Assembly (NCBI GenBank): GCA_001793155.1
Contig: MGHI01000040.1
Span: 3,209-67,208, forward strand
DNA length: 64,000 bases
Direction: 5' to 3'
Origin: Candidatus Woesebacteria bacterium RIFCSPLOWO2_01_FULL_39_61
GTDB lineage: Bacteria > Patescibacteriota > Microgenomatia > UBA8517
A model generated the notes under the pieces. The model saw nothing but the letters and a program-made list of their open reading frames with translations, made no database searches and had not been told where the DNA came from. The translations under genes and the position numbers were made by a program. Every line of letters begins with the position of its first letter. Position 1 is the stretch's first letter. Of the stretch, positions 16,392 to 47,748 are shown piece by piece.

Positions 16392-17717
16392 ATGAAAATA
16401 CTAAAATTAGCTTTTCTCCCAGTCACCACCCTGCTTATCTTTTTATATCTTTACGGAGCGATCCAACATTCTAACTTAATAAACATAAGAACACGTACGG
16501 GAGATCTTGATCACGGCGACCAAGGGGCGTATATAGAGGTAATTAAAAAAACCTATAACGAGAGCTTCAGATTTCTCGGCGATAGAAATAGAATGCCTCT
16601 TTATACTACTTTCCAAGCCATATTTTATACACCGGGCATAACCGATGAACGACTCTTCGCTCAAGCTAAGTTGATCAATATATTTTTTTCAATCTTTCTT
16701 ATCTACCTCATGTTTATCTTTAATCGAAGATACATTTCTAAACTAAGCAATATTGTATTTACACTGATTATTGGCTTTTCTGTCTTTTTGCCCCGGTCCG
16801 CCTATGTACAGCCCGAACTTCTTTACTTCACATTAAGTTTTTTTGCATTTGTGTATTTTTGTAAAACTATCAAACACAAAAAGGTTGCTGATGTTGTCTT
16901 CGCGGCAATCCTGGCTGTGGCGGCTTATATGACAAAGGCTTCGATGCTCCTGGGGTTTGGATTTTTTATCTTTTTTCTTTTTCTGTCCGGCTTAAAGGGA
17001 TACAGAATTAAGAGGATGTTGGCAATTCCGATAATCGCCTTAATAATTTTTTTATCGCTCGTATCTCCATACCTTATTCAAACCAAAAAACTTTATGGAG
17101 GTTATTTTTTCAATTACGCAACTACTTATATGTGGAGTCAGAACTGGGATGAGGCGTTAACCGTCGATAAAAAATTGCGAAATATTGAATACATAAGATC
17201 GCTGTCAAAAGATCAGCTACCGTCATTGGGCAGATACATTAAGGAACGCTCCGCCTCCGATATGAGCTTGCGTATGTTTACCGGCATCATTCTAAATATA
17301 GGTATACTTTTAGGAACGTACGCAACCCTTTCCTCCGCAATTCTTATTTTATACATTCTCTTTTTAATTTATTTTATTTTTTCCAGTATAAGGCTGGATA
17401 GCTTTCGAAGATTCTTAAATCAAAATAAGGCTGTAATAATTTTTATTTTAGGTTATCTTCTTTCATATTTCTTCGCGTTTTCCTGGTATGCTCCGATTGG
17501 TGCCGGCCCAAGGTTTACCTTTACCACTTATATACCCGCTCTTTTTTCTGTCCTTTATCTATCTGAAAAGCTTAGCATTAAGGGAGAAGTTTCAAAATTT
17601 AATCCTATTAGTACTCAACTTTTTTATTTAACTCATATAGCTTCATTTATCATCTTATTTTTGGGAGTAAAAGGCCTAATCTTTCCCTATCTTTTCACTT
17701 CATGGGCTGGGTTCTAG
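16392..17717 (+). CDS. Polytopic membrane protein, GT-C-like glycosyltransferase candidate
   Basis: 441 aa, >10 TM helices, PMT/ArnT-like architecture. Confidence 0.45.
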   Translation: MKILKLAFLPVTTLLIFLYLYGAIQHSNLINIRTRTGDLDHGDQGAYIEVIKKTYNESFRFLGDRNRMPLYTTFQAIFYTPGITDERLFAQAKLINIFFSIFLIYLMFIFNRRYISKLSNIVFTLIIGFSVFLPRSAYVQPELLYFTLSFFAFVYFCKTIKHKKVADVVFAAILAVAAYMTKASMLLGFGFFIFFLFLSGLKGYRIKRMLAIPIIALIIFLSLVSPYLIQTKKLYGGYFFNYATTYMWSQNWDEALTVDKKLRNIEYIRSLSKDQLPSLGRYIKERSASDMSLRMFTGIILNIGILLGTYATLSSAILILYILFLIYFIFSSIRLDSFRRFLNQNKAVIIFILGYLLSYFFAFSWYAPIGAGPRFTFTTYIPALFSVLYLSEKLSIKGEVSKFNPISTQLFYLTHIASFIILFLGVKGLIFPYLFTSWAGF

Positions 17718-18941
17718 AGACTTATTTGCGTTAATAACCTGTTTATCTACTAAACCCAAAACTAGGCTAAATGAAAAGACAAGCATAACAATTATTGTAG
17801 GTACCAACCCCCACCAAAAACTTAAGCTGGTTGCAAAAAACAATGAGAGAGTCAGAAAGATCTTCCTTGTTATCATTACCTTACTATCAAGAAGTGCAAA
17901 GAGGGGTGGGAGAAGGATTACCAAATCATGAAGAAGGGTGTGGCCAGAAAACAATAGAGTAAAAAACACTGCAATTAAAAATCTGTGGCCAAATTTAGCA
18001 TTACGGGGATTTCTTATAAAAACAAGGATTGCCACAAAATAACAAACAACATTAAGGCCAATAGACTTATAACCATACAACCACCCTCTAAAAATAAAGG
18101 CGAGTAATCCATTTAGGCTAACCATCTTTACGGCCTGAGGATCATATTTCCAATAATCCTGGCCTGCGGCAATTATGTGAATATAATCAGAAAGGGTAGG
18201 AGTAATTCCCGAAATTAGTATACTAATTCCTACCAAGATAGCTAACATACTAAGAAAACCCAAGACAAAGCGCCTCTTATCCTGGACCAGGATATATAGA
18301 AACGGTGTAATAATCATAAATTGAGGTTTAATCAAAAAAAGGGCCGTAAATATACCTGCCTGAAATGTTTTTTTTCTGGTCAAGGAAAGAAAAATAAATA
18401 AGGTAACTATGGCTAGAATTAGGGTAGGTTGACCCATGAATAAAGTACCAATTACCGGCAAAAATAAGGGGGGGGAAATATATAAAAAAAGCCTGTTTAT
18501 TTTCTTAAAATATCTAGACGAGAGAAAAATAAGCATCCATAAAAAGAAAATATTTAAGGCTAAAAAAGAAATATAACCCACATCATATTCCATTAGCGAA
18601 AACGGAAGGTAGAAAAGAACAACAAAGGGAGGGTTCATAAACATCGCGACCGGTTTACTTTCCGAAAAAGTAAGCTCCTCTCCTAAATATTTTTTGATAA
18701 GCTTCAATTGGAAGGATCGTTGAACATCTACTTTATAGAGCGAGGAACCCTTCCCTTCCTTCACAATCTGGGCGGCTGTGTAAAAATGAATGAAGTCTGT
18801 CCCAAAAGCAAACTTTCCCCTCATAAGGAAAAGTACATATGAAAATATAAGAAGTACCATCACAATTCCAAAAATAAAAATTGTGGGGGTCGCTAAGTTG
18901 TGTATTGAAAAAAATTTCTTGCTTCGGAAATTTTTAGTCAT
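17700..18941 (-). CDS. Polytopic membrane protein, DUF2029/GT87-like (paralog group B)
   Basis: 413 aa. Shares the motif F..F..AA.IV..GKG..LY with 20557..21777 and 21728..22909. Confidence 0.45.
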   Translation of the reverse strand: MTKNFRSKKFFSIHNLATPTIFIFGIVMVLLIFSYVLFLMRGKFAFGTDFIHFYTAAQIVKEGKGSSLYKVDVQRSFQLKLIKKYLGEELTFSESKPVAMFMNPPFVVLFYLPFSLMEYDVGYISFLALNIFFLWMLIFLSSRYFKKINRLFLYISPPLFLPVIGTLFMGQPTLILAIVTLFIFLSLTRKKTFQAGIFTALFLIKPQFMIITPFLYILVQDKRRFVLGFLSMLAILVGISILISGITPTLSDYIHIIAAGQDYWKYDPQAVKMVSLNGLLAFIFRGWLYGYKSIGLNVVCYFVAILVFIRNPRNAKFGHRFLIAVFFTLLFSGHTLLHDLVILLPPLFALLDSKVMITRKIFLTLSLFFATSLSFWWGLVPTIIVMLVFSFSLVLGLVDKQVINANKSLEPSP

Positions 18942-18989
18942 CGAATCCTCTCTCTTGTAATTTTAAGAGTGCCTTCGTGGCGTTAATTA

Positions 18990-20555
18990 TTACTTATGTT
19001 TTTTTAAAACTACCGCGGTCTCATCCTGGTATACTTCTTCCCACCCGTCTTTTTCTAGCTGTTTTACAAGTTTAAAGTCTTTCTTTTTATAACCAAAGTA
19101 TGTTAAGAAGTTTCCAACTTTTTCAAAATAAACATCGAGTGGCGTATCGTCTTTCGGTTTGGTCCACAAAACTACCTGAATATTATATTCGTCAAATACT
19201 TTCTTATAGTCCAATTCCCCACCGAGAATTTTGGTGTAATCGTCAAAAGCCGAATTTGTTTCCCCGTCGGGAGCATTCCAACGCCAACTCGGCATTCTTC
19301 CATCGACAAATACCTTCTTTTCAGGTATTTTCCAAATCAAATAACCACCCCAACCGTACTCGGTAAAAATTTGTCCGGGAGGAGTATTCTCTTTAAGATA
19401 GTAAACCGCACTTTTGGGATAGTAGTTCTCTTCTGTCAAAGAAATTCCTTCGGCGTAATCAAAAATAAGCTGGAATAAAACAATTCCAAGCACCCCCAGC
19501 CAAGCCCATCTATATGCCTTAAAAATTCTCTCTAAGGCAGATTTCTTATTCTTAAGCTGATTGTGAAATGTCCAAATAGCTTGGGTTACAATCGGTAAAC
19601 CTGCAATTACCAAAAGAGGTAAATGTCTTCTTGAACTAACGGCCTGAACCAAAAAGAAGAAAAACAAAAAAACTTCCTCTGTTTTCAGAAATTTTCTTTG
19701 CTTCCAGACAAAAACCGAAGAAAAAGTACCCAAAACAATCATCGGTAAATTAAGCATGGTAATGGCCGGCATCCACTCGTTAATTGCCCAGCGAAGCTTA
19801 GCATCAACGATTGAAGACCAGACTTCCCTCCAGACACCAAAACCATAGGGATTTACTAGGGTAATAAGAAGGCTGGCAATAAAAATAAAATATGAATATA
19901 AGTTGACTTTCTTTTCTCTTAAGGATCTGGTAATCAATACCAGGAAAAATGACATTAATCCGGATGCAAATCCTCCGTGTGTGTTAGCCCAGACCAGAAA
20001 TATCAGTGGCAAAAAGAGTCTGTATTTTTTCCAAAGTATGTCGTCAAAGATCATCTTGAGGAGTAGTGCGAGAAATACCCAAGTTAAAATCTGGACACGC
20101 ACTCCAAAAAAGACAAAAAGTAAAGAGATAGATAGCAAAAATACAAAATTGGAAAAGTCTCCGAAATCGCCGCCCAAGGACTTCCGATAAATATTTGTCA
20201 AATCTTTCTTGACACTTGATTTTAAAGTTGAATGGGAAATCTTTATCGCCAAAAAAACAAAAAGAGAGTAGATAAGCGCAAGACCTATCTTACCGACAAT
20301 TGGGAAAAGATACGAAAGCGTCAGGCTTTGCAACCAGGCATGATCAACATATGGGAAGGAAGGCATCGTATAACTAAAGGGGTCCTTATATTGTATGCCC
20401 GTCTTGAGAATTAGTTCGCCCGATTTCAACCTCCAGCCAAAATCAGGATCAAGAAAGACAATCGCTCTCGTCCAAAATAAGATTAAAGCCAGCATATAAA
20501 ATATCGCTCTGCCGTACTTCTTTGCAAAGGCCAAAAAATAATTTAAGTGGTACAT
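18990..20555 (-). CDS. Membrane protein with N-terminal polytopic domain and C-terminal soluble domain
   Basis: 521 aa. About 10 TM helices, then a ~170-aa hydrophilic C-terminal domain. Confidence 0.45.
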   Translation of the reverse strand: MYHLNYFLAFAKKYGRAIFYMLALILFWTRAIVFLDPDFGWRLKSGELILKTGIQYKDPFSYTMPSFPYVDHAWLQSLTLSYLFPIVGKIGLALIYSLFVFLAIKISHSTLKSSVKKDLTNIYRKSLGGDFGDFSNFVFLLSISLLFVFFGVRVQILTWVFLALLLKMIFDDILWKKYRLFLPLIFLVWANTHGGFASGLMSFFLVLITRSLREKKVNLYSYFIFIASLLITLVNPYGFGVWREVWSSIVDAKLRWAINEWMPAITMLNLPMIVLGTFSSVFVWKQRKFLKTEEVFLFFFFLVQAVSSRRHLPLLVIAGLPIVTQAIWTFHNQLKNKKSALERIFKAYRWAWLGVLGIVLFQLIFDYAEGISLTEENYYPKSAVYYLKENTPPGQIFTEYGWGGYLIWKIPEKKVFVDGRMPSWRWNAPDGETNSAFDDYTKILGGELDYKKVFDEYNIQVVLWTKPKDDTPLDVYFEKVGNFLTYFGYKKKDFKLVKQLEKDGWEEVYQDETAVVLKKHK

Positions 20556-20556
20556 T

Positions 20557-21777
20557 TTATGCTTCTAGAAAAATATGACTTTTGCCTACTATCAAAAACA
20601 ACACCCCCAGTGTCAGTAGAGGGAAAGATAAATACGCCTGAAATCCTGTATAGGCAAGAATTGGTAGCGCATAGATAACAAACGCCAGAAAGTAGGCAAA
20701 TTTAAACCTCTTTTTCCTACCCCTAAATATCTTATTAAATATAATGTAGAAAGGAATTAAAAGGAGAACATAGTCAAAACTTAGGAAATGAACAGAAAAT
20801 ACTATCGAAAAGAGAATCGTCGAAACGAACAATGTCTCGTAGGTTAATTTACGAGACCGTATCGCAAAAAATATCAGCACCACAAAATATAAAAGAGTAT
20901 TTAGAAAGACCACAAATCTGCCGGATAGATTAGAAAATAAAAAACGGGTATTCGCATAGAAAGATCCCATATCTTGGAATCTGCTTCCATAGTTTGAATT
21001 CTCCGTTGTAAATAAAAACGCAGGATAGCGAAGAAACCACAAGGGATAGGACATGACTGAACTTACTAAGATTAAGAAGGCAAACATTGGAAAAAAACCG
21101 ATCAAAAATTGCTTTTTTTCTCTAACTAAAAAAAAGATAAAAGGTATCGCCGTAAGATATTGTGCCTTAATTATCAAAAGAGACGAAAATACACCGGCAA
21201 GAACATACTTTTTATCTTTTATGCTATTAAAGATAATCAAAAAGATGGTTGTAATTAGCACTGAAAGTTGTCCCATACATAGAGCTTGCAGTGCTGGAAT
21301 AAATACGATCACCAATAAAAATAAGTATTTAGACTTTGCGGAAATGTTTTCAAACACCCTTGTGAGTAGATAGTAAAAAAAGATAAGTAATAAAAAATTT
21401 CCTATGGAAAATATCGTGTAAGCAGTCTCCAGGGAAAGAAAGGTTAAAGGAAGATAGATAAGAAGCACAGCAGGAATTCCTCGGAAAGGCAAGACCCAGT
21501 CACCTATTTTCGGATCTATTACTGACGTTTGAAAAAAATATTGTGTTGGCAAATCATAAAGCAAGCTCCCCTTTCCTGCGGCAAGTATTTCAGCTCCAAC
21601 AAAATAACTGATAAAGTCTGCCGATTTTGAAAAATAACTCCTATTTACCAGAGTTGCCATAAATGTAGCTAAAAATATCGAAAGAAAAGAAGCGTGAACA
21701 ACAATTTTTTTTATAGTTTGTGATTTTTTAGTTTTCTTCATGTGAGCGGCTCCCAGGAAAGAGAAAAAACAGACCAA
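20557..21777 (-). CDS. Polytopic membrane protein, DUF2029/GT87-like (paralog group B)
   Basis: 406 aa. The true start is probably MKKTKKS at 21741, which trims the overlap with the upstream gene. Confidence 0.45.
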   Translation of the reverse strand: MVCFFSFLGAAHMKKTKKSQTIKKIVVHASFLSIFLATFMATLVNRSYFSKSADFISYFVGAEILAAGKGSLLYDLPTQYFFQTSVIDPKIGDWVLPFRGIPAVLLIYLPLTFLSLETAYTIFSIGNFLLLIFFYYLLTRVFENISAKSKYLFLLVIVFIPALQALCMGQLSVLITTIFLIIFNSIKDKKYVLAGVFSSLLIIKAQYLTAIPFIFFLVREKKQFLIGFFPMFAFLILVSSVMSYPLWFLRYPAFLFTTENSNYGSRFQDMGSFYANTRFLFSNLSGRFVVFLNTLLYFVVLIFFAIRSRKLTYETLFVSTILFSIVFSVHFLSFDYVLLLIPFYIIFNKIFRGRKKRFKFAYFLAFVIYALPILAYTGFQAYLSFPLLTLGVLFLIVGKSHIFLEA

Positions 21778-22909
21778 CCATCAAAAATGCGAATTGTAAA
21801 AAATAGGTTGTATTCAAAAAAATTATTGACGGTAGAAAAAATAAAAAAAAGACAATGATTTGGGAAACGTACTTTCTTTTCTCTTTTTTTAAAAAAACCA
21901 GATTTAAGATTATAAAAATCGGAATAAGAGTCACTGTTAAGTCATGGGCCAAAGTGTGCATTGAAAAAAATATTGAAAAAAGAACCGCTGAAATAAAGGA
22001 CTTTTCTCTATCCACTTCTTTATATCTATACCGAAAAATGACCAAAGCTAGTAAATAAAAGATTAAATTAGCTGCAATCAAGAATTCTCGCGGCATCTTA
22101 CTAATCATGTTTTGGGCTAATAAAAAACCATAAAATGTAAAAGACAAAGCCGCATTACTGCCAAGTTTCGGAATCTCGCTGCTTAAAACGAACTCGGGAT
22201 ACTTTTGTAAAGTTTGCCAGCCGGATATATACAAACTCACAGATAATATAAGAAGCATGGAAATAAAAAACCCCTTAAGATATGACTTTTTATCTTCAGA
22301 AAGGATAAACAAAAAGGGGAAAAGGGTTAGATATTGTATTTTCAGCAGAAAGAAAGAGGTAAAAAAACCAAGTAAAAACCATTTTTTCTTTTTTAATAAA
22401 AAATAAAGCGAAGCATATAAAAGTAATAAGATAACTGAAGTCTGCCCCATTCTTAGGGAAAGCAAAACAGGTAAAAAGACAATTGGAATTAAGCCGAGAA
22501 AAGGCTTACCTCTAACCAAATCCCTAAATTGAATCGATAACCAAACCGAGGTCAGCACAAGAATGATGTAGTTGGTGTATACAAAATACTTGTATGCCAT
22601 CAGTGGGTGCAAAAACGAAAACGGTAAAAAGATAATCACCGAAGCTGGAATTAACCTAAAACCGTTTCTATTCCTTACGTCCGTCCTTTCAATATACTTC
22701 TCCTGAATCTGATAGTTGAAACCTATATCATAAAGCTTCTCGCCTTTTCCGTCTTTTACGATTTTAGCTGCAACAAAATGATTAAGAAAATCACTTTCCA
22801 GCAACAAATTCTCCGTTGGTTTGAACAAGATAATTATGGGAATGCTGACTATAAAGAAATATAAGACCAATAGTACCAAATTAACGTTTTTATTTTTGAT
22901 AGTCTTCAT
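21728..22909 (-). CDS. Polytopic membrane protein, DUF2029/GT87-like (paralog group B)
   Basis: 393 aa. Shares the conserved N-terminal motif FLNHFVAAKIVKDGKGEKLYD with the other group B paralogs. Confidence 0.45.
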   Translation of the reverse strand: MKTIKNKNVNLVLLVLYFFIVSIPIIILFKPTENLLLESDFLNHFVAAKIVKDGKGEKLYDIGFNYQIQEKYIERTDVRNRNGFRLIPASVIIFLPFSFLHPLMAYKYFVYTNYIILVLTSVWLSIQFRDLVRGKPFLGLIPIVFLPVLLSLRMGQTSVILLLLYASLYFLLKKKKWFLLGFFTSFFLLKIQYLTLFPFLFILSEDKKSYLKGFFISMLLILSVSLYISGWQTLQKYPEFVLSSEIPKLGSNAALSFTFYGFLLAQNMISKMPREFLIAANLIFYLLALVIFRYRYKEVDREKSFISAVLFSIFFSMHTLAHDLTVTLIPIFIILNLVFLKKEKRKYVSQIIVFFLFFLPSIIFLNTTYFLQFAFLMVGLFFLFPGSRSHEEN

Positions 22910-22957
22910 TAAGGTTTTTAGTATCTATATTACGGATATCGGAATTATATAGGGCAT

Positions 22958-24190
22958 TTAAATGAAGTCTGATAAAAAGGTAATAAACAAATAAAGATTT
23001 GTATGGGCAACAACTAAAATAACGATTTTAAAGGCCTTCGAAAGGATTCTGTATTTTCTCCTGTAGCCAATTAAAAGAATCAAAAAAAGTAAAGGGAGAA
23101 AATCCAACGAATACCTATATCCAAACTGACGATATCCTACTCCGTAATAAAGAAGTATCGGCAATGCGATTATTAAAGCTGTGACCCACATAAGTTTCAA
23201 CAACCGATTTTTATACTTCAGTAAGAAAAGGTACAGAAAGTAAGGCGAGGTAAAAAAGATACTTACTCCCCAGGGATTGGCTTTTATATAAGGGTATGTT
23301 AATACGTGAGAAAGGCCATCCTTGAAAACCGGCGTGGGTGAACTTAACAAGAAGTAATATAAATTTCCAGGGAGATGAATAAGGTTAAAAATTCCGTATT
23401 CCCGAGCTTTAAGGGCCGAACCTTTAATTAACTGAAAATTATAACCCAGTTCAAAAATGTTTCTGAACCTAAGCTGGTTATAAAGAAATGCCAAAAAGAT
23501 AGCCAGGATAAAAGGTGAAATAATCTTAGTTAAATTCAAAAGTCTCGAGCGAAAGGTTGTATGCGTATTAAAATATATATCGGCGACAAAAAGTACTATT
23601 ATTAAGCTTGCAGGAGTTCTGGTCAGAAAAAGTAATCCGCTAATTACCCCTAAAACCCAATGGCGTTTTTTTGACAGAAACTCGTAAAGTCCAAGAAATA
23701 GTAAAAAGGTAGCCACAACTTGAGAGTAATACCAACTCCACGGCCAAAGGGCAACGCCCAGAAAAACTGAACTAAAACAAAAAGCAAAAGCCAAAAACAA
23801 CGAGTCATTTGAAGAGTATTTAATTTTCCTGCAAATCCGATAGATAAGATAAAAAACTCCAGCCACCAAAAAAAATTGTAGATACCCCTGCAGGAAAAAT
23901 TTTCCAAAAAGGCTAAATATATAAACGAAAGGTATTAAAATAATGGCCGGAAAAGGCTGAAGCGGCCAATAAAACTTACCCTCAAAGAGGGCGGTATCAT
24001 AAACTGCAACTTTTGTTTGTGTAAAATAAAGTTTACCTTGCAAAAAAGAGTACGCCAAATTAGAAAATTGTTGGTCTCCGGAGATAAAAAAGTTTAAGAG
24101 TCCGCAAATTAAAAAGAAGAAGATCATGCTCATAATCACAACCCTCTTCCCGAGTGGATAATTTTGGATTGGTTTTTTGAAATTTGCCAT
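22958..24190 (-). CDS. Polytopic membrane protein, GT-C-like (paralog group C)
   Basis: 410 aa. Shares FLQGKLYF...YDTALFEGKFYWPLQPFPAIILIPFV with 26461..27828, 27904..29106 and 29131..30351. Confidence 0.45.
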   Translation of the reverse strand: MANFKKPIQNYPLGKRVVIMSMIFFFLICGLLNFFISGDQQFSNLAYSFLQGKLYFTQTKVAVYDTALFEGKFYWPLQPFPAIILIPFVYIFSLFGKFFLQGYLQFFLVAGVFYLIYRICRKIKYSSNDSLFLAFAFCFSSVFLGVALWPWSWYYSQVVATFLLFLGLYEFLSKKRHWVLGVISGLLFLTRTPASLIIVLFVADIYFNTHTTFRSRLLNLTKIISPFILAIFLAFLYNQLRFRNIFELGYNFQLIKGSALKAREYGIFNLIHLPGNLYYFLLSSPTPVFKDGLSHVLTYPYIKANPWGVSIFFTSPYFLYLFLLKYKNRLLKLMWVTALIIALPILLYYGVGYRQFGYRYSLDFLPLLFLILLIGYRRKYRILSKAFKIVILVVAHTNLYLFITFLSDFI

Positions 24191-24196
24191 GTGTGA

Positions 24197-25708
24197 TCAT
24201 TTACCAGGATTTGCTACATATAAGTTTACCTCTTCGTGATCGTTAGAGGTCCCGGCAACGTTTTTAAGTCCAAATTTATTAGCGAAATTTGTCAAATACT
24301 CTTCTTTATACCAGCCGTCGAATTCGTTTTTGGAAACAATTAAAAACAAGGTGTTGTCTAAGGTTTCTTTATTTAATTTAGAGTGTCTTTTTATATCTTT
24401 TTCGGCAAGTATATTAAATCGCCGGGAGAGAAAAAAAGGCTGGAAATAGCGATCTGGCGACAGTTTATCAAAAGTAAAGTAAAGCTGGGGATAGTAAGTT
24501 ACAACCATCAAATATTCCTTGGAGTCCAGAAGGTCTTTGTGATTCGTTATAAAATTTTGAACCCGGGTAAGATCTGAGTCTCTATCTTCGCTAAAAAGAA
24601 AGTGGCGGTAACTACCCACCTCCGATATAAAAAGCAACAGTAAAACGGATGCTAGTAAGTGCGACATCCTGGTCTCTGGAATTATTTTCCTCCCCTGAAG
24701 AGCAGAATTTCCTCTGAAAGATAAAGCTATTATCAAGACCATAGCTATCGTGACAATCAAAGAGAATTGTACGAAATGGTGAAAATAAAATAACCCCCCT
24801 ACAAAAGTCGATGAGATCGAGGCGAAAAAGATTGCAAATATCAAAAACTTATACTCTATTAACTTATTATTTAGTAGACTGAAATAAAGGAGGGGAATAA
24901 CCAAGATTATGGATAAAAACAATCTCGTTTCAGAAGAGATGTTTAAAACTAGCTGTCTTAAATAATCGGTTTTTATCAAGCGAGAGTATCCCGAGTTAAA
25001 AACTAGTAAATTATCAATTAAGTAGTCCAGCCTGCCCCCCAAAACAACGTAAAATAAAATTACCGAGAGGAAAGATACTATAGACCCGACAAAAAATTTT
25101 AAAAATATAGCCAATTTCTCACCCTTACTTAAAAACCAGACCAAGGGAACAATTCCCCAAAAAATAGTCGTCGGTCTGGTAAGTATTGCCAAAGAGTAAA
25201 GAATTCCAGCAAAAAAGACTTTTTTTCTTTCTACTAACAAAAGCGATGAAAGTATAAAGAAAAAAGCCACGGTTTCGGAGTATACGCCTCCTGTAAATGT
25301 CCCTATCGAGTAACTTTTGATAAGAAGGGTAATAAAAAAAGAAAGAAATATTCCCCACTTACCTGATAGTAAGTTTTGCACCTTAAACCAACTGGTTGCA
25401 ATCTTAATTGAAAAGAAGGACAAAAAAGTATCCAGGATGGTACTTGTCACAATTAATGCAAGTTTGTAGTTATTTTTAAAAAAGAGATATAAAACCGAGA
25501 AGAAAAAGTAAAGTACAGGGCCTTTATTATCGGCAAAATCTACATACATGTCTTTCCCTTGGGCAACGCCACGACCGATATAATAAAAGGAAAAAAAGTC
25601 AGGATCAATATTTCCCCAAAGAAAGCTTAAGGATACCAAAAAACTAGTTATAATAATTACCAAGAAAAGGTGCTTTTCCTTAATTTTTAAATTTCGATTA
25701 ACCTGCAT
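24197..25708 (-). CDS. Polytopic membrane protein with C-terminal soluble domain, GT-C-like
   Basis: 503 aa. N-terminal ~11 TM helices, then a ~150-aa soluble domain. Confidence 0.45.
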   Translation of the reverse strand: MQVNRNLKIKEKHLFLVIIITSFLVSLSFLWGNIDPDFFSFYYIGRGVAQGKDMYVDFADNKGPVLYFFFSVLYLFFKNNYKLALIVTSTILDTFLSFFSIKIATSWFKVQNLLSGKWGIFLSFFITLLIKSYSIGTFTGGVYSETVAFFFILSSLLLVERKKVFFAGILYSLAILTRPTTIFWGIVPLVWFLSKGEKLAIFLKFFVGSIVSFLSVILFYVVLGGRLDYLIDNLLVFNSGYSRLIKTDYLRQLVLNISSETRLFLSIILVIPLLYFSLLNNKLIEYKFLIFAIFFASISSTFVGGLFYFHHFVQFSLIVTIAMVLIIALSFRGNSALQGRKIIPETRMSHLLASVLLLLFISEVGSYRHFLFSEDRDSDLTRVQNFITNHKDLLDSKEYLMVVTYYPQLYFTFDKLSPDRYFQPFFLSRRFNILAEKDIKRHSKLNKETLDNTLFLIVSKNEFDGWYKEEYLTNFANKFGLKNVAGTSNDHEEVNLYVANPGK

Positions 25709-25727
25709 GGTAAATGCTCCCGGAAAC

Positions 25728-26453
25728 TTAAAAGGGGGGAAATAAACTTAAAAGCGTAGATAATCCATACTTAACACTTCTTGTAAAACTAATAGAAGAC
25801 GCTTCATTAAAATAACGAACCGGAACGGGAGTTTCTCCAACCCGAAAACCACGCCTGATTGCCGAAATTAGTATTTGTTGATCAAATACAAAGTCGTCAG
25901 AAAATTTGTGAAACGGCACCCTTTTAAGCACCTTTTGGTGAAAGGCGCGAAAACCGGTATGATATTCTGATAAATTCTGACCAAGGATGATATTTTCCAC
26001 AATAGTTAATAGCCTATTTCCCAAATATTTATAGAGGGGCATCCCGCCGGCCAACGACTCTTTTCTGGTTCTAATTCTTGAACCCAACATTAGGTCAAAA
26101 CGTCCTTCAATAATCGGTTTTACCAATTCTTCAACCAAACTGCTGTCGTATTGATAATCCGGATGAATCATCACAACAATATCGGCTCCCTCGTTTAAAG
26201 CCAACGTATAACAGCTTTTTTGATTTCCGCCATAACCCCTGTTCTGGGGGTGAACAAAGGTCTTAATACGAAGGCGTTTGGCAATTTCTACGGTTTTATC
26301 GTGACTTCCGTCATCAACCAGTATTATTTTATTAACAATTTTTTTGGGTATATCCTCGTAAGTCTTTTTTAAAGTTTTTTCCGCATTGTAAGCCGGCATC
26401 ACTACTACTATTTTCTCAAAATTGATTCTTTTTCTCTTAGATGTGCTTTTCAT
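25728..26453 (-). CDS. GT2-family polyprenol-phosphate sugar transferase (DPM1/GtrB/ArnC-like)
   Basis: 241-aa ORF: VVMPAYNAEKTLKKTYEDIP...ILVDDGSHDKT...HPDYQYD..., a typical GT-A DxD-fold Dol-P-Man/Und-P-Glc synthase pattern. Confidence 0.8.
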   Translation of the reverse strand: MKSTSKRKRINFEKIVVVMPAYNAEKTLKKTYEDIPKKIVNKIILVDDGSHDKTVEIAKRLRIKTFVHPQNRGYGGNQKSCYTLALNEGADIVVMIHPDYQYDSSLVEELVKPIIEGRFDLMLGSRIRTRKESLAGGMPLYKYLGNRLLTIVENIILGQNLSEYHTGFRAFHQKVLKRVPFHKFSDDFVFDQQILISAIRRGFRVGETPVPVRYFNEASSISFTRSVKYGLSTLLSLFPPF

Positions 26454-26460
26454 AAATTTA

Positions 26461-27828
26461 TTAATTCATAAAGTAGGCTGTTATAAAAAAATATAAATTC
26501 GTCAGCGACGAAACAAAAATTAACAACTTAAACCCATCGGAAAGTTTACCGAACGTATTCTTATAATTTTTAATAAGTAGGAAAAAAAGAAGCGGCAGAA
26601 AATCAAGAGCATAACGATATCCGAACTGGCGAGAACCTATCGCGTAATATAGAAATATTGAAAACGCGATTACGGATATTGTTAGCATGAGAATTTTGGA
26701 CAACTTGTCTTTATACGAAAGTAAAAATAAGTAGCCAAAGATTGGCGACGTAACAAAAATACTCATCCCCCACGGGTCTGCCTTTACAAAAGGGAAAGTC
26801 AAAACGTGAGAAATTTCATCTTTGAAAACTGGAAGCGGCGTTGCTAAGAGAAAATAATATAAGTTTCCTGGAATGTGATAAAGACTTAGCACTCCATAGT
26901 CGCGAGCCTTGGTTGAACCCGCCAAATTAATGGCGTTAGTATAACCAAATTCAAAAACGTTCTGAAACCGTATCCAGTTATAGGCGAAAAAGAGTATAAA
27001 AGCTAGGATAACTGGGGTACATAATAAAAAAACCTTTTTCGTTTTCTCAATCCAGCCCTCTCCCTTATTTGTAAGAATGCTCATTAAAGGAAACACAAGA
27101 ATTCCTACAGATGACGCCCTGGTTAATAAAAGCAGTCCCACAAATAAACCCAACAAAACTTCTGGCACCTTGTTCAACGAGTTATGACGTCCTCCCCACC
27201 TTGAAAGGCGGGGTATCCCTAAGGAGGACGACATATCGGCGTTCAATTCATCCCCGCCCTGAAGGGTGGGGTTTTCTTGAATGCCGTTATAAATAAGAAG
27301 GAATATAAGTAGTGTTACTAGTGTATGGGCAATAAAACCTGGCCACAAAGCACTACCCAAGAATACCGTTGAGAAGCAAAAAGCAAAAGCTAAAAACAAA
27401 GAATCCTCATGTTCGTATTTAACTTTTCTTGCAACCTTATAGCAAAGATAAAAAACTAAAATCACCAATAACGGCTGAATATAGCCGTGATATATACGAA
27501 CCCCCAACAAATGAGAAACCAGCACAAAGGGTAATAAAAATACAGCCGGAAAAGGGCCGTGAGGAGAATAGTAGTTTCCTCTATCGGGGGTTGTGTCTAA
27601 CCAACTTCCATCAGGCTGGGTTAAAAAATAAGTCTTTCCGGACCAAAAAGATTCAGCCAAACGGGTGAAGTATTCACCCTTGAGAGTAAAATTAAATGCG
27701 ACAACGACTGAAAAAAACAAGATAATAGAAACCTTCAAAATTCTGGTCATTTTTTCAAATAATAATAACAAAAATAATCTCTGATAAAAAATTTCCCCGG
27801 AGACACCCCCACAACACCCTTCCTTCAT
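26461..27828 (-). CDS. Polytopic membrane protein, GT-C-like (paralog group C) carrying an in-frame ~40-aa insertion derived from a MITE-like repeat
   Basis: 455 aa. Relative to paralog 22958..24190 it contains the extra segment ...NPTLQGGDELNADMSSSLGIPRLSRWGGRHNSLNKVPEV... This segment is encoded exactly by repeat copy B (27183..27295). Confidence 0.5.
   Translation of the reverse strand: MKEGCCGGVSGEIFYQRLFLLLLFEKMTRILKVSIILFFSVVVAFNFTLKGEYFTRLAESFWSGKTYFLTQPDGSWLDTTPDRGNYYSPHGPFPAVFLLPFVLVSHLLGVRIYHGYIQPLLVILVFYLCYKVARKVKYEHEDSLFLAFAFCFSTVFLGSALWPGFIAHTLVTLLIFLLIYNGIQENPTLQGGDELNADMSSSLGIPRLSRWGGRHNSLNKVPEVLLGLFVGLLLLTRASSVGILVFPLMSILTNKGEGWIEKTKKVFLLCTPVILAFILFFAYNWIRFQNVFEFGYTNAINLAGSTKARDYGVLSLYHIPGNLYYFLLATPLPVFKDEISHVLTFPFVKADPWGMSIFVTSPIFGYLFLLSYKDKLSKILMLTISVIAFSIFLYYAIGSRQFGYRYALDFLPLLFFLLIKNYKNTFGKLSDGFKLLIFVSSLTNLYFFITAYFMN
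27183..27295. repeat. MITE-like palindromic repeat, copy B (inside CDS 26461..27828, in frame)
   Basis: tgacgtcctcc-[CCACCTTGAAAGGCGGGG]-tatccctaaggaggacgacatatcggcgttcaattcatcccc-[GCCCTGAAGGGTGGGG]-ttttcttgaatgccgttata. About 80% identical to copy A outside the stems, and the stems are compensatory. Confidence 0.6.
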
Positions 27829-27829
27829 T

Positions 27830-27905
27830 ATCGGGCGGGGCCTTAAGAGGGAGGCATAAATATTTATCTACCGAGTCAGTGTCGAAAGTTTTCTTGAATG
27901 CTTCT
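27830..27905. repeat. Degenerate partial MITE-like repeat, copy D
   Basis: ...ttaagagggaggcataaatatttatctaccgagtcagtgtcgaaagttttcttgaatgcttctata shares the 3' portion (taaRgRggagg...gttttcttgaatgcYNNtata) with copies A and B. Confidence 0.3.
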
Positions 27906-29106
27906 ATAAAAATACACTAAGAAAAAGGTAAAAATTAAAAAGCGAACTAAGCAATATCACAAATTTTATTTTTATTGATAGTTGTCGAGGCTTAATCGAG
28001 TATAAAAGGAGAAGAAATAAAAAGGGCAAAACATCGATCATGTATCTCGGTCCGACCTGTGTCCATCCTGGTGAATAATACGTAAAGAGAATTGTAACTA
28101 TTATCAAAATTGTCAAAAGCGATAGCCTAACTATCCTTTTTTTAAAATTAGCTCTAAAGACACTAAGGAATATTGGAGAAACTACAAAGAAACTTGTCCC
28201 GGGCTCAACTACTTTCAGAAAGGGTAATTTAGGGATTAATTTCGATATTAGAATGTTTCTATTTTCTACAAAACTAACTTCAAAGGTTTTAATAAAATAG
28301 TAGTAGAAGTTCATTGGAATATTACTAAAGGCAAATAAACTATTTCCAGTTGGAAAACTTGTAACTTTCGTATAGCCGCTGTCTAAAAAATTTCCGAACC
28401 GTAAGTAGTTATAAATCATAAGTACAAAAACCATCAATACATACGGGGTAGAAAGGCTTGCCAACTTAGCAAATTTTTCTCTTAACCTATATTTAGGGTT
28501 AAGAAAAATTTCAAATATGAAAAACATTATCGTCAAACCGGTAATAAATCTGGAAGCAAGGGCTAAAGCAGAAAAAAATCCAATAACAAAATACCTCTTC
28601 TTCCCTAAAAATTCATAAATTGCTAATAGGACAAAAAAAACACCCACAGATTGAGACAAATAAGAGCTTATTGGAATAACAGATATACTCTGATAGACGG
28701 AAGCCAGACAAAAAGCATAAGCAAGGTATAAAGAGTCCTTAGTATTATATTTGAAAGATTTGGATATGCGAAAACAAATGAAAAGAGCACCCAAGAAAAC
28801 AAAAACATGAAGAAGGCTTTGATAAAAAGGAGCTTTAAATAAGTCAGAAATAAAAACAAAAGGAATAAGTAAAATCGCAGGCGTCGGACCCTGATGAAGA
28901 TAGTATTTCCCGTCGTAGAGTACGTAGTCTTCCTGAATCGATGTGTGTACTAAATATAATCTTTTATTGATAAATGACCTGGCCAATTCGGTGTAACCTG
29001 AAAAGTCTCCGATAACGTTAATATATAAATTAAATATTAATATAAGAGAGGTAAAAATAATTAGAAAAATCAATATCAATTTTGATGAATAATGTCTATG
29101 CTCCAT
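27904..29106 (-). CDS. Polytopic membrane protein, GT-C-like (paralog group C)
   Basis: 400 aa. Motif FINKRLYLVHTSIQEDYVLYDGKYYLHQGPTPAILLIPFVFI. Confidence 0.45.
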   Translation of the reverse strand: MEHRHYSSKLILIFLIIFTSLILIFNLYINVIGDFSGYTELARSFINKRLYLVHTSIQEDYVLYDGKYYLHQGPTPAILLIPFVFISDLFKAPFYQSLLHVFVFLGALFICFRISKSFKYNTKDSLYLAYAFCLASVYQSISVIPISSYLSQSVGVFFVLLAIYEFLGKKRYFVIGFFSALALASRFITGLTIMFFIFEIFLNPKYRLREKFAKLASLSTPYVLMVFVLMIYNYLRFGNFLDSGYTKVTSFPTGNSLFAFSNIPMNFYYYFIKTFEVSFVENRNILISKLIPKLPFLKVVEPGTSFFVVSPIFLSVFRANFKKRIVRLSLLTILIIVTILFTYYSPGWTQVGPRYMIDVLPFLFLLLLYSIKPRQLSIKIKFVILLSSLFNFYLFLSVFL

Positions 29107-29130
29107 ATTATCAGTATTAAAATGTTTCTC

Positions 29131-30351
29131 TTAAACAAACATTTGTGCATTTCCAATCATACGCGCTATAAATAAATACAAATTAAACAAGGAGCTAAAA
29201 ATTATTAATGTCTTTGCAAATGTGGAAACATTTTGTTTTCTAAATGAAAATAAAAGCATAATAAATGCAAAGGGTAATAAATCAAGCAGATAACGAGGCC
29301 CCAACTGATAGTCTTCCCCTGAATAATAAAAAAGTAGTAAAGCCAAAAGTATGATTATCGAAGCTAGCAAAGATGATTTCACAAGTTTATTTTTTATCTT
29401 TACCTTTAAGAGATAAAAAAATACCGGAGATACTACAAAAAAGCTGGTACTGGGATAGGCAACAAGGTGGGGTATATTAAGTGTTATACCACCAAGTACT
29501 ACTTGCTTATTATTGAGAATATAAACCTGTAAGCCTTTTAAAAAATAGGTATAAAAATTATTGCGAAGATACCTGATTCCGAAAAGCGGGTCTCCTACCG
29601 GAAGAGTTGGATTATTTATTAAATAACCAGTCTCAAAAAAACTCTCGAATCTGACAAAATTATAAATTAGCAAAAGCACACCCGCAAATCCGATTGGAAG
29701 TAATAGATAAAACAAATCCCTAATTTTATTTTTCAGTGAAGATTTACTATATAAGATATCGAAGACAAAAAAGGCTAAACCTAAAATCGTAAATGCCCTA
29801 GTTGCCAAAACCAAAGATAATAAAACACCTGTAAGAAAATGTTTTCTGTAAAAAAGATATATATAGATTGCCAAAAGCATAAAAAAGACGCTTATTTCTT
29901 GGCCAAAGAACCAGCTAACTGAAAAAAAGGCTATAAACTGGAAAACCGAAGCAAAACAAAATGCGTAAGCGAGGTATCTAGAATTTTCGCCCCCGAATTT
30001 AAAATACCGCGCGATTTTATAACAAAGTATAAAAATTCCCAAGCTTATAAAAAACTGCAAATATCCTTGCTTGAAGTTAAGTCCAACGATATCAAAGACG
30101 AATACGAAAGGCATCAAGATAACTGCAGGCAGAGGTCCTTGATGCCAATAGTGCTTTGAATCATATAAAACCAAATCCATCTCCTTATAGCCATCTGGAA
30201 AATACAATTTGCCTTCCAAAAAGGATTGCGAAAGAGCTAAATACTGATCGTTGATGTTTATTTTCAAATTTAAAGCGAAGACTAAACTAAAAAAAACGAC
30301 CAAAAAAATATCTACAATTATTTCAGGAAAGTGAATTTTAGCTAAGCGCAT
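29131..30351 (-). CDS. Polytopic membrane protein, GT-C-like (paralog group C)
   Basis: 406 aa. Motif FLEGKLYFPDGYKEMDLVLYDSKHYWHQGPLPAVILMPFVFV. Confidence 0.45.
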   Translation of the reverse strand: MRLAKIHFPEIIVDIFLVVFFSLVFALNLKININDQYLALSQSFLEGKLYFPDGYKEMDLVLYDSKHYWHQGPLPAVILMPFVFVFDIVGLNFKQGYLQFFISLGIFILCYKIARYFKFGGENSRYLAYAFCFASVFQFIAFFSVSWFFGQEISVFFMLLAIYIYLFYRKHFLTGVLLSLVLATRAFTILGLAFFVFDILYSKSSLKNKIRDLFYLLLPIGFAGVLLLIYNFVRFESFFETGYLINNPTLPVGDPLFGIRYLRNNFYTYFLKGLQVYILNNKQVVLGGITLNIPHLVAYPSTSFFVVSPVFFYLLKVKIKNKLVKSSLLASIIILLALLLFYYSGEDYQLGPRYLLDLLPFAFIMLLFSFRKQNVSTFAKTLIIFSSLFNLYLFIARMIGNAQMFV

Positions 30352-30452: not shown

Positions 30453-30947
30453 CTAGTTTTCTAAATATTTGAGCAAAAATACTGCAGAGTTTCCTTTTCC
30501 ATATTGATAATCTTTAATCCAACCCGCATCTTCATAACCATTCTTTTTATAAAAGTTAACGACCCCATCATCTCCTTTGTTAGTGTAAACAAACATTTTA
30601 CGAGCCCCTTTACTATGAGCATATTCTTCTAGTTTGCCAAGAATTTTAGATCCGACTCCCTTGCCTGCATGTTCGGGATTAACTGCTGCGATTACTATTA
30701 CCCATTTCTCGATTCCTTCATTTCCATTTATGGGATTTTCCTGTTGAGCATAGGTCATACCCAATATTTCATTGTCATCAGATAATGCTAATACACAAGC
30801 GCCTTTTTCTTCATGGATAGCTTTAACCATTTCTGTAAAGGAAAACCATTGTTCCACTGACGAATCTGGTGTTGCAGAAAAAGCCTTTCTAGCGATAGCT
30901 TCGATTGGTTCTATATCTTGGTTAACGTTGAATAATTCTGTTCGCAT
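30453..30947 (-). CDS. GNAT family N-acetyltransferase
   Basis: 164 aa. Acetyl-CoA binding motif region VIVIAAVNPEHAGKGVGSKILGKLEEYA. Confidence 0.7.
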   Translation of the reverse strand: MRTELFNVNQDIEPIEAIARKAFSATPDSSVEQWFSFTEMVKAIHEEKGACVLALSDDNEILGMTYAQQENPINGNEGIEKWVIVIAAVNPEHAGKGVGSKILGKLEEYAHSKGARKMFVYTNKGDDGVVNFYKKNGYEDAGWIKDYQYGKGNSAVFLLKYLEN

Positions 30948-31216: not shown

Positions 31217-32548
31217 TTATAGCTTTAATACATAACTTTCATAACCATTGTATGGCTGTGTTTTGCCTTCAAAATTCACATTTATCTTTAACTCAGATTC
31301 TCCACTTCCAGTAAATGTTATGTTTTTAGTCAACTCACGAGATTGTCCAGAAGTCAAATCTATATTTTGAAAGTTCTCGGTGGCTAAAACTTTCACCTCA
31401 CCATCTGTGGTGAAGCCATCATTTGTTCTTTTGTAGGGGGTTTGTGAAATTGACAAAGATTTTAGAACAGCATTCTCTTTACTAACATTCGTCAGCTCAA
31501 TATCAAAGACATTACTAACTCCACTCTTGATTGGTCTTTTATACTTAATCTTCATCACAATCTTATTACTGTAACGCAAATCACTCCATATAAGCCCTTG
31601 TTCTGATGGATATTCTGTGGGAGCATATAAACTACTTTCAAAGACCAGTAAATCACCATCAAGCTTAACCTCTGAATTTATAGAATAGTTTTCACCTTTG
31701 GAACGGAAATCGCAATCTTTCACTGGTTCTTCTCTATGCGTTTGTCCTTCTCTTAAAGACCATAAACCAGCTTGAGAACATTCTCCATTATTGAAGTTTG
31801 CTACATACTTTCCATCTTTCAAAAATTCGATTTCAGTTGGTAATCTAAATAAATCTAAATCGTTAGTTTTCTTCCATTTTTTTGCTGTAAGCTTGTTAAA
31901 TAAATCAGAAGTATTTACCCTCGGCAGGTTATCAGCTGTATATGTGTTACCACTATCTGTAATCGCTTCACATTTACCTAACCTTTCACCTGCCAATGAA
32001 ATTCGGTCACTTTTTATTACAAATCCCCAAGCGTCACCAGAACTTAAAAAGATTACTCCTGAATCTGAACCGCTTGCTTCAAAGTTCCAATTACCTTGAC
32101 CTGAACCTTCTGGATAATCTGAAAAGTGTGACCATTTGTAAGTTCCGTTTTTAGTAAAAGCGTAGTTTTTTGCAGTAGGTGCAAGCATACTTTTCCCTGA
32201 AATATCATCTTTATTGCACCAAGTGTTAGCAGTCAGTTTATCAAACAGAGTTCCTTTGTCTAAACTTGAAGCTGTTGGCTGCGAAGATGTCGTATCAAAG
32301 TTAGATGGAATACTTTTATTTGATAACTTTGTGGGTAACAGATTAGATTTTGTAGCAAGCAAATAACCAACTACCCCAATTACTGTCACAAGAAATAAAA
32401 CTCCCAAAATGATGAGAATTGAGCCTTTTTGGTTTTTTATTAGACTTCGGAAAGTGGATTGAGATTGAATTAGTGATTTAGAAGGATTTACAGGCTGATT
32501 ATAATTGTCCACTTCCATATAGTTATAGTATTTCAAATACGAGGGCAA
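31217..32548 (-). CDS. Hypothetical membrane-anchored extracytoplasmic protein
   Basis: 443 aa. N-terminal signal-anchor helix (ILIILGVLFLVTVIGVVGYLL), then a beta-rich Ser/Thr/Asn-rich domain. Confidence 0.45.
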   Translation of the reverse strand: MPSYLKYYNYMEVDNYNQPVNPSKSLIQSQSTFRSLIKNQKGSILIILGVLFLVTVIGVVGYLLATKSNLLPTKLSNKSIPSNFDTTSSQPTASSLDKGTLFDKLTANTWCNKDDISGKSMLAPTAKNYAFTKNGTYKWSHFSDYPEGSGQGNWNFEASGSDSGVIFLSSGDAWGFVIKSDRISLAGERLGKCEAITDSGNTYTADNLPRVNTSDLFNKLTAKKWKKTNDLDLFRLPTEIEFLKDGKYVANFNNGECSQAGLWSLREGQTHREEPVKDCDFRSKGENYSINSEVKLDGDLLVFESSLYAPTEYPSEQGLIWSDLRYSNKIVMKIKYKRPIKSGVSNVFDIELTNVSKENAVLKSLSISQTPYKRTNDGFTTDGEVKVLATENFQNIDLTSGQSRELTKNITFTGSGESELKINVNFEGKTQPYNGYESYVLKL

Positions 32549-36436: not shown

Positions 36437-36495
36437 CCTCTGCAGGCTACACCGATTTTCAAGATCGGCCCGTTCATCCACTCCGGCACGTCTCC
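36407..36495 (-). tRNA. tRNA-Ser (anticodon UGA)
   Basis: Manual fold: acceptor GGAGACG/CGTCTCC, D-arm CCGGAGTGGATGAACGG, anticodon loop CTTGAAA, long variable arm, T-arm AGAGGTTCGAATCCTCT, discriminator G. Confidence 0.8.
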
Positions 36496-36499
36496 CCGG

Positions 36500-36586
36500 C
36501 GGAGGAGGTGGGATTCGAACCCACGCGAGCTTTTAAGGCTCACGCGCTCTCCAAGCGCGCGGAATGAACCACTATCCGACTCCTCC
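36500..36586 (-). tRNA. tRNA-Ser (anticodon GGA)
   Basis: Manual fold: acceptor GGAGGAG/CTCCTCC, anticodon stem CGCGC/GCGCG with loop TTGGAGA, long variable arm GAGCCTTAAAAGCTC, T-arm GTGGGTTCGAATCCCAC. Confidence 0.75.
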
Positions 36587-36598
36587 GAATATAGCCAA

Positions 36599-37593: not shown

Positions 37594-37602
37594 AACTTTA
37601 CT

Positions 37603-37866
37603 TTAACTTGAGGCACCTTCAAAGTAAAACCTAAGCATCTTCTTAATACTTCTTCTCCCCCAACCACTTTTAAGAAATCTTTCCCTAGCTTTTGCATCTT
37701 TAATTATCAAAAAGCCTTCATAATATATCAATTTATACGGCCTATACAGTTTTGTTGCCAAACTCTCTCCAAAGTTGTGTTCCTTAAGTCTTCTGTCAAC
37801 ATTATCAGTAGAACCGATATATAGACTTCTGTTTACTTCACTTCGAATAATATAGACAAAAAACAT
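37603..37866 (-). CDS. GIY-YIG nuclease family protein (short single-domain type)
   Basis: 87 aa. MFFVYIIRSEVNRSLYIGSTDNVDRRLKEHN with GIY...YIG motifs. Confidence 0.7.
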   Translation of the reverse strand: MFFVYIIRSEVNRSLYIGSTDNVDRRLKEHNFGESLATKLYRPYKLIYYEGFLIIKDAKARERFLKSGWGRRSIKKMLRFYFEGASS

Positions 37867-37934
37867 AGCGTCGCGTAATAAATCAAAGATTTAAACGCGA
37901 CAGCCACGTTTAAATTGCTTGGCAATTTATTACG

Positions 37935-47737: not shown

Positions 47738-47748
47738 TAGTCATCAAA

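Follow-up and report, generated by a model that had tools for sequence, protein, structure and literature searches.

We analyzed 64,000 nucleotides of contig MGHI01000040.1 (positions 3,209 to 67,208 of the forward strand; hereafter the window) from Candidatus Woesebacteria bacterium RIFCSPLOWO2_01_FULL_39_61 and found that window positions 16392-30351 hold an array of 11 genes which, according to the open reading frame (ORF) list and hydropathy, encode 10 polytopic membrane proteins and one soluble glycosyltransferase of family 2 (GT2). The ten membrane proteins are of the glycosyltransferase C (GT-C) type and not transporters: three are GT87 proteins (B1-B3), four form a family that we term C (C1-C4) and one is its relative (E), one is PMT_2-like (A), and one has an STT3/DPY19-like architecture (D). 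We read the array as a three-component system of lipid-carrier-dependent extracytoplasmic glycosylation, made up of a synthase, a flippase, and GT-C enzymes, and give this reading a probability of roughly 0.65. An initial annotation of this DNA, made by a model from the sequence alone, had proposed the same kind of system, and the GT-C membrane proteins together with the similarities of the GT2 protein keep it the best reading.

The array spans 14 kb and consists of ten co-directional minus-strand genes, running from 17700 to 30351, and one convergent plus-strand gene, A. The genes are packed as in an operon, with intergenic spacing ranging from a 14-nt overlap up to 101 nt, and A (16392-17717, +) overlaps the 3' end of B1 (17700-18941, -) by 18 nt. 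A crude hydropathy count predicts 8-13 transmembrane (TM) segments for each membrane protein of the array. The ORF coordinates come from a mechanical ORF list and match those of the initial annotation exactly; the tandem array of GT-C-like genes that it described is real, except that it comprises 10 membrane proteins and not 11, the GT2 gene being one of the ten minus-strand genes. In the mechanical list the ORF starts of B2 and C2 are probably too long. A scan for promoters and terminators yielded no usable operon boundaries: sites resembling promoters were no more frequent than in shuffles, and those resembling terminators were modestly so (22 vs 13.2 ± 3.6).

Assignment of the membrane proteins to the GT-C class

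A, C1-C4, D, and E gave no direct match in Pfam or NCBIfam, apart from weak family C signals to the LA_3751/LA_3752 family, and we therefore placed A, C, D, and E through family alignments combined with structure and profile methods. In the family alignments, an aspartate directly after the first TM segment (TM1) is invariant or at least 90% conserved in every family (D43 in A, D49 in B, D65 in C, D36/D38 in D, and D35/D37 in E). The catalytic acid of solved GT-C enzymes sits just after TM1. In addition, a Lys/Arg-rich N-terminus precedes TM1 in all membrane families of the array. When AlphaFold (AF2) models of C1 and D were compared with the PDB by Foldseek, GT-C enzymes reached a probability of 0.9-1.0 and a TM-score of 0.35-0.58, whereas transporters, G-protein-coupled receptors (GPCRs), and ABC proteins scored at a probability of <0.15 and a TM-score of ~0.1. 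The weak Pfam matches of C, D, and E homologs recur to GT87, DUF2079, DUF2142, ALG10, Mannosyl_trans4, and TMEM260-like families, the others being single weak matches to unrelated families, and no transporter family occurs among the weak Pfam matches of A, C, D, and E homologs. Because the fold, Pfam, and profile searches return GT-C folds and families, the match to transporter families that the initial annotation had named as grounds against its reading did not materialize.

The group B genes encode putative GT87 (DUF2029) glycosyltransferases: B1 (413 aa), B2 (20557-21741, -, from an ATG, with the mechanical ORF reaching to a TTG at 21777; probably 394 aa, the length annotated on the source contig), and B3 (21728-22909, -; 393 aa). 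In an all-against-all blastp comparison they are 30-33% identical to one another (E 1e-32 to 1e-49). PF09594 matches B1, B2, and B3 at E-values of 1.6e-20, 1.4e-14, and 2.2e-14 and with 74.3, 54.9, and 54.2 bits, well above the curated cut-off of 25, in agreement with the three GT87/DUF2029-like paralogs of the initial annotation. D49 (B1 numbering), just after TM1, is invariant in 24 sequences; as the reference catalytic Asp we take D58 of PimE, in the first extracytoplasmic loop. B1 contains DFIHFYTAAQIVKEGKGSSLY, which approximates the group B motif quoted in the initial annotation.

Family C, a Patescibacteria GT-C family without a Pfam model, is represented by C1 (22958-24190, -; 410 aa), C2 (26461-27828, -; probable true start M27 at 27750), C3 (27904-29106, -), and C4 (29131-30351, -). 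As the initial annotation had it, the four are paralogs, with mutual blastp identities of 28-44% (E 1e-38 to 1e-98; C1-C2 44%, C1-C3 34%, C1-C4 36%, and C3-C4 40%), and the motif quoted for them is approximately present, for example in C1 as FLQGKLYF...FEGKFYWPLQPFPAIILIPFV. The AF2 model of C1 (pLDDT 93.3, pTM 0.93) has 23 top PDB matches in Foldseek, all of GT-C fold, made up of 20 glycosyltransferases and three chains of PIG-U (probability 0.8-1.0, TM-score 0.34-0.55, with transporters at 0.08 or less). The best of these is ALG12 (9s6t, E 8.4e-5), and the matches include PIG-M, STT3, Pmt4, AglB, ArnT, ALG3, AftB, ALG9, and PimE (9dm5/9dm7). The family has hundreds of relatives, and D65 in the first external loop (EL1) is invariant in an alignment of 36 sequences. 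At the sequence level, NCBIfam NF047440 (LA_3751/LA_3752 putative glycosyltransferase) weakly matches C1, C2, and C4, with E-values from 6e-4 (C1) to 6e-2, and DUF2079 is matched by 4 of the 36 family C homologs; phmmer and hmmsearch found no PDB sequence relative of the family.

E (24197-25708, -; 503 aa) is distantly related to family C, from which an added C-terminal soluble domain sets it apart; the two align in hhalign with a probability of 96% (E 3e-9, 303 columns), and E is thereby a predicted GT-C by homology to a family of modelled GT-C fold. The initial annotation had set four proteins apart as not obviously related to groups B and C; there are only three (A, D, and E), and E turns out to be kin to C. 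A comparison of E with GT87 gave a probability of 53% over the N-terminal 200 residues, and its links to A (1%) and to D (2%) were too weak to use. After TM1, D35 and D37 are invariant in the E alignment (D35-P-D37). The E family is rare, with 14 relatives only in a search of 5.8 billion proteins.

A (441 aa) is probably a divergent PMT_2 (ArnT/PMT-type; GT39/GT83-like) GT-C, because 18 of 40 aligned members of its family (E 1e-33 to 1e-172 to A) match PF13231 PMT_2, the best at E 2.6e-9. This membership is by transitivity: A itself has no PF13231 match at E<=1 and no other match in Pfam or NCBIfam, and its PDB searches were empty. The family counts 720 cluster representatives at E<=1e-3; directly behind TM1 its members share an almost invariant D43 and an invariant Q44, and RNRMPLY is conserved as well.

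The last membrane protein, D (18990-20555, -; 521 aa), has an AF2 model (pLDDT 89.8) in which an alpha/beta domain of ~145 residues follows the GT-C core at the C-terminus. Its top 14 PDB matches in Foldseek are all GT-C, 12 of them with E<=1e-3, led by STT3 (8age_A, E 9.6e-7) and then DPY19, ALG12, and PglB. In an alignment of 33 sequences, the DPD at positions 36-38 after TM1 is at least 90% conserved, as part of an EL1 motif, DPDFGWR, which we take to resemble the Asp-containing EL1 motif of STT3/AglB. The C-terminal domain conserves YGWGGY...DGRMPSW, the first part more fully as YGWGGY(L/I)IW. From the model, D appears to be a separate GT-C family, closest among solved structures to STT3 and DPY19, a likeness at the level of fold. 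The family lacks a Pfam model, is widespread in Microgenomates, and is encoded in at least 564 GTDB species genomes. A link between D and GT87 was rejected as too weak to use (hhalign probability 22%).

A candidate polyprenol-phosphate sugar synthase and the proposed pathway

The GT2 gene (25728-26453, -) encodes a protein of 241 aa with a PF00535 domain (E 8e-23) and 0 TM segments, which bears out the single soluble, DPM1/GtrB-like GT2 that the initial annotation placed inside the array. In NCBIfam it comes closest to AglJ, PpgS, and a haloarchaeal Dol-P-hexose transferase (E 1e-22 to 1e-17), three enzymes that make polyprenol-monophosphate sugars, and its sole PDB sequence relative is the Dol-P-Man synthase of P. 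furiosus (5mlz, E 1.7e-7). It is the only protein with a glycosyltransferase domain among the window genes that had Pfam matches or were scanned, a set covering most of the window and not every ORF. We therefore regard it as a candidate polyprenol-phosphate hexose synthase, the best-supported inference from these similarities rather than a demonstrated membership.

We infer a single pathway in which the GT2 protein would be the donor source for the GT-Cs of the array. Specifically, on the inner side of the membrane it would charge polyprenol phosphate with a hexose taken from a nucleotide sugar, a flippase encoded outside the locus would flip the lipid-linked sugar, and the ten GT-Cs would each use it to add one sugar to surface acceptors at the outer face. 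Candidates for these acceptors are a lipoglycan, a wall polymer, or proteins that are secreted or anchored, and different GT-Cs would make different linkages or serve different acceptors. The deep sequence divergence among the GT-Cs suggests such distinct linkages or acceptors, by analogy with the ALG/PIG enzymes or with the mycobacterial synthesis of phosphatidylinositol mannosides (PIM), lipomannan (LM), and lipoarabinomannan (LAM). Besides the families, folds, and GT2 similarities, the close packing of the genes, their linkage in other species, and a GT87-D fusion protein (the latter two described below) speak for this reading.

Several findings weigh against this pathway. The NCBIfam scores of the GT2 protein are far under the equivalog cut-offs (79.5 vs 325 bits for AglJ and 64.6 vs 370 for PpgS), and it reads H97-P-D99 where 5mlz has DAD, at the position of the canonical DXD; together with its short soluble form, these points keep it a candidate synthase. 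In the 64-kb window we found no flippase candidate of the GtrA/GtcA or Wzx type, and there is no small multi-TM ORF of flippase type in or beside the array, the small TM proteins being only those that resemble pilins of type IV secretion systems (T4SS), at 47-50 kb. No acceptor or glycan was identified for the array. PIG-U, found among the fold matches of C1, is a non-catalytic member of the GT-C fold. Finally, in 80 loci examined within a 10-kb radius of D orthologs, family B genes occur in 17, C in 8, E in 3, and GT2 in 10, so that most D orthologs have no GT2 gene beside them and D is at least not dependent on a neighboring synthase.

This last observation also feeds the main alternative, which we regard as doubtful, namely that the co-located GT-Cs serve several pathways or donors and that D moves a pre-assembled oligosaccharide from polyprenol diphosphate en bloc, in the manner of an oligosaccharyltransferase or ligase, instead of drawing single sugars from what the GT2 protein makes. 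The best structural matches of D are indeed STT3 subunits (E 1e-6 to 1e-5), DPY19, and PglB, and its many host species usually carry it without GT2, B, C, or E nearby. Against this, neither D nor its 33 homologs match Pfam STT3 (PF02516), and the WWDYG motif is absent, with YGWGGY standing at a conserved position of the C-terminal domain, which argues against a place in GT66. D has no sequence relative in the PDB, even by profile search, and its TM-scores to GT-C structures reach only 0.4-0.58. Moreover, D has a GT87 gene on either side, with 1 nt separating it from B2, and D is also found fused to GT87.

The fusion is a database protein (P0140, 910 aa, from a single contig) in which a GT87 domain (18-392) and a D-family domain (408-910) are joined, matching the order of B2 and D in the window. 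It is either a genuine fusion linking two activities or a frameshift or gene-calling artefact.

Conservation and age of the array

The lipid-carrier-dependent system, if that is what the array encodes, is not peculiar to this genome. The locus of a sibling species (L082; RpoD 98% and DnaG 76% identical) shows the array with its gene order intact and beside dnaG-rpoD, the genes that the array also adjoins in the window. Identities to the sibling orthologs are 62% for A, 54% for B1, 69% for D, 60% for B2, 64% for C1, 59% for E, 82% for GT2, 74% for C2, and 63% for C3. B3 has no ortholog within the sibling locus and C4 no clear one (best match there 42%), whereas family C itself is larger in the sibling, with six or more copies within 21.5 kb. 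In a neighbor-joining tree, family C splits into two deep clades common to other Patescibacteria, a C1/C2-type and a C3/C4-type, and each C paralog of the window groups with orthologs of other species and not with its neighbors; C3 orthologs, for example, are found in the sibling and at one further locus (L006). Since the paralogs are only 28-44% identical and cluster with the orthologs of other species, the duplications long predate the species, and the array paralogs are ancient, with some lineage-specific gain and loss.

Elsewhere the same genes are found in smaller groups. In 37 other species, complete 21-kb loci around D orthologs hold 0-5 large polytopic ORFs (median 2), compared with 10 here, and the array is an extreme case of a common Microgenomates theme. 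Close GT2 orthologs adjoin B, C, D, or E genes at three other loci (L005, L025, and L031). The array proteins also occur on many metagenome contigs. Among named organisms, Candidatus Woesebacteria and other Microgenomates/Patescibacteria are the nearest.

These comparisons bear on a second alternative, raised by the initial annotation, that the array is a recent, fast-diversifying set of paralogs under diversifying selection, producing surface-glycan variation for phage evasion or host recognition. In its favor, the copy number differs from that of the sibling in B3, C4, and the additional C genes and exceeds that of the 37 other species, and the GT-C orthologs (54-74% identical) are more diverged than RpoD, GT2, or DnaG. 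The age of the paralogs and the gene order kept in the sibling nevertheless argue against a recent diversifying burst and are compatible with faster-than-average evolution, as polytopic membrane proteins usually diverge faster. Synonymous sites are saturated at 54-74% amino-acid identity, so that dN/dS is not estimable. We thus consider this alternative quite unlikely.

That A, C, D, and E are partly or wholly something other than glycosyltransferases (transporters, flippases, or structural membrane proteins) is highly improbable: these four kinds of protein have no direct Pfam match in the window, one E homolog carries the source label 'MFS family permease', and C1 has PIG-U among its fold matches, yet transporters, GPCRs, and ABC proteins score as noise against GT-C enzymes at a probability of 0.9-1.0 and a TM-score of 0.35-0.58, the acidic residue after TM1 is kept in every family, and the weak Pfam matches of the homologs include GT-C families (PMT_2 besides the six already named) and no transporter family.

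The array also differs from its flanks in base composition, with a GC content of 0.32-0.37 compared with 0.40-0.47. We considered that it might be a horizontal-transfer island and ruled this out by the synteny beside dnaG-rpoD in the sibling; its GC content is low because it encodes membrane proteins rich in Phe, Ile, Leu, Tyr, and Lys.

Within the array, C2 carries an in-frame insertion of ~105 nt (35 residues, ...NGIQENPTLQGGDELNADMSSSLGIPRLSRWGGRHN...; window 27170-27275, minus strand) that is missing from the 74%-identical sibling ortholog and from the C2 paralogs. C2 aligns to that ortholog from M27 only, the ortholog lacking the N-terminal 26 residues. The insertion is GC-rich within an AT-rich gene and is made up of two similar hairpins, CCCCACCCTTCAGGGCGGGG and CCCCGCCTTTCAAGGTGGGG, with a folding z-score of -4.9. 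Its motif recurs in the window as one weak match with three mismatches, at 138-157 only, and in none of 112 other loci examined. The insertion may be a small palindromic insertion element tolerated in a loop.

A few kb from the sibling array, at positions 20561-21566 of that locus, lies the gene for a Wzy_C (O-antigen ligase/PglL-like) protein of 777 aa that has TPR repeats, which hints at an additional transfer step for polyprenol-diphosphate-linked glycans in such organisms.

Other features of the window

The initial annotation had listed a twelfth GT-C-like gene, F (147-1922, -; 591 aa, polytopic, with a C-terminal soluble domain), outside the array, for which we obtained no sequence or profile link to GT-C. 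F and 24 metagenome homologs have no Pfam match, F has no NCBIfam match and no PDB match by profile search, and its hhalign probabilities to the A, B, C, and D profiles are all <8%. G34 and D35 are invariant in the F family right after TM1 (consensus FGDD, the first D being Gly in F), a motif that looks GT-C-like and is not diagnostic. F-family genes stand in tandem pairs or triplets on other metagenome contigs (L086/L087, L103, L104/L106, and L108), and the family is thus itself prone to tandem paralogy.

Upstream of the array, 101 nt from C4, lies a co-directional gene for a GNAT acetyltransferase (30453-30947, -; PF00583, E 2e-14), whose membership in the glycosylation system is uncertain. 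Further upstream and in the same direction, 31217-32548 (-) encodes a protein of 443 aa that has a single membrane anchor at its N-terminus and a Ser/Thr-rich linker, matches nothing in Pfam, and could be a surface protein or an acceptor. A secreted Lamin-tail-domain (LTD) protein at 9925-10875 (+) has a Pro/Thr-rich tandem repeat (PT repeat) at 10555-10718 with a 24/36-nt period; since Pro/Thr linkers are classic O-glycosylation sites, the GT-C array might use it as an acceptor.

Otherwise the window holds what is typical of genomes of the Candidate Phyla Radiation (CPR), with T4SS-pilin-like genes, Big/LTD surface proteins, tRNAs, tmRNA, and a serine recombinase. At ~47270-50370 (+) there are about nine small T4SS-pilin-like (PF18895) genes, after which 50372-55392 encodes large proteins without a Pfam match (one of 936 aa, another of 577 aa with 10 TM segments) and, further on, 60857-61882 encodes a PrgI-family protein; the region looks like a CPR type-IV-secretion or pilus-like locus. 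Two genes for four-helix-bundle proteins of the 23S_rRNA_IVP/bAvd-like kind are located at 53216-53641 (+) and 60436-60822 (+). Such bAvd-like genes can accompany diversity-generating retroelements, a candidate that we rejected: we found no long direct repeats near the two genes and no template/variable repeat pair in the window. At 34925-38030, ~4.5 kb from the array, a large serine recombinase (Resolvase, Recombinase, and zinc ribbon) adjoins clustered tRNA-Ser genes, and the 3' end of its ORF overlaps tRNA-Ser(tga) at 36406-36495. This region may be a hotspot for integration or what is left of an integrated element.

Significance

CPR/Patescibacteria genomes are ~1 Mb in size and stripped of most biosynthesis. 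A stretch of 14 kb given to ten predicted outward-facing glycosyltransferases in so small a genome would make surface glycans a major investment, which may bear on host attachment, phage evasion, and envelope stability. The analysis also gives a fold and a probable activity to large families of 'hypothetical membrane proteins', namely D (at least 564 species), C (hundreds), and A (720 representatives), and the conserved Asp after TM1 offers a concrete target for biochemistry. What is new is modest: the GT-C assignment for C, its rare relative E, and D, which have no Pfam or NCBIfam model and are found mainly in Patescibacteria, and the unusual density of the array. A bolder interpretation, which we think unlikely, would see in C/E and D undescribed GT-C families that together with the GT87 and PMT_2-like enzymes form an assembly line for the surface glycan or glycoprotein coat of an ultra-small, probably episymbiotic cell, with D as an STT3-like protein glycosylator independent of the PglB lineage.

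Comparison with known systems

Three-component systems include GtrA/GtrB/GtrC (enterobacterial O-antigen), CsbB/GtcA/YfhO (Firmicute teichoic acids), and ArnC/ArnT. As in these systems, the array has a GT2 gene, closest to polyprenol-phosphate sugar synthases, beside genes for GT-Cs of the outer-face type. Unlike them, it has one candidate synthase beside ten GT-Cs of at least four families, and not beside a single GT-C, and no flippase gene was found in the window. Its synthase candidate differs as well: GtrB and CsbB have two C-terminal TM helices, whereas the GT2 protein of the array is short and soluble, and it reads HPD at the DXD position.

The actinobacterial polyprenol-phosphate-mannose pathways, in which Ppm1 works with PimE, Rv2181 (GT87), MptA/B, and Pmt (GT39) in PIM/LM/LAM synthesis and protein O-mannosylation, are alike in bringing together GT87 and PMT-type enzymes with a synthase that resembles DPM1, and in using several diverged GT-Cs that each add one sugar, as proposed for the array. 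In contrast to the dispersed actinobacterial genes, those of the array are clustered; half of its enzymes (C1-C4 and E) come from a family without a Pfam model, and no GT-B genes for phosphatidylinositol mannosides were seen in the window. 

In structure, C1 comes closest to eukaryotic lumenal enzymes, ALG3/9/12 and PIG-M (9s6t, 9s6r, 9s6u, and 9wno; E 8e-5 to 4e-2, TM-score 0.41-0.51), which like C1 are compact GT-Cs of ~400 aa without a large soluble domain and which use polyprenol (dolichol)-P-sugar donors. They are 10-15% identical to C1, with no relationship at the sequence level, and belong to another domain of life with other acceptors. D shares with STT3/AglB/PglB (GT66) and DPY19 a polytopic GT-C core, a C-terminal extracytoplasmic domain, and an acidic motif after TM1; it differs from STT3/AglB/PglB in having neither a Pfam STT3 match nor WWDYG, and in a much smaller C-terminal domain (~145 aa). 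For family C, the Leptospira LA_3751/LA_3752 family (NF047440) and DUF2079 are the only library models with any signal; the NF047440 score is far under its cut-off (18.7 vs 200 bits), and both model families are uncharacterized.

In the literature on GT-C enzymes in Patescibacteria we found no paper describing such arrays, the nearest being a report that notes GT87 and Dol-P-Man synthase genes in a Saccharibacterium, a CPR genome (PMC6031116). Overall, the kind of system is already known, and the array is a crowded version of known surface decoration and reveals no new mechanism.

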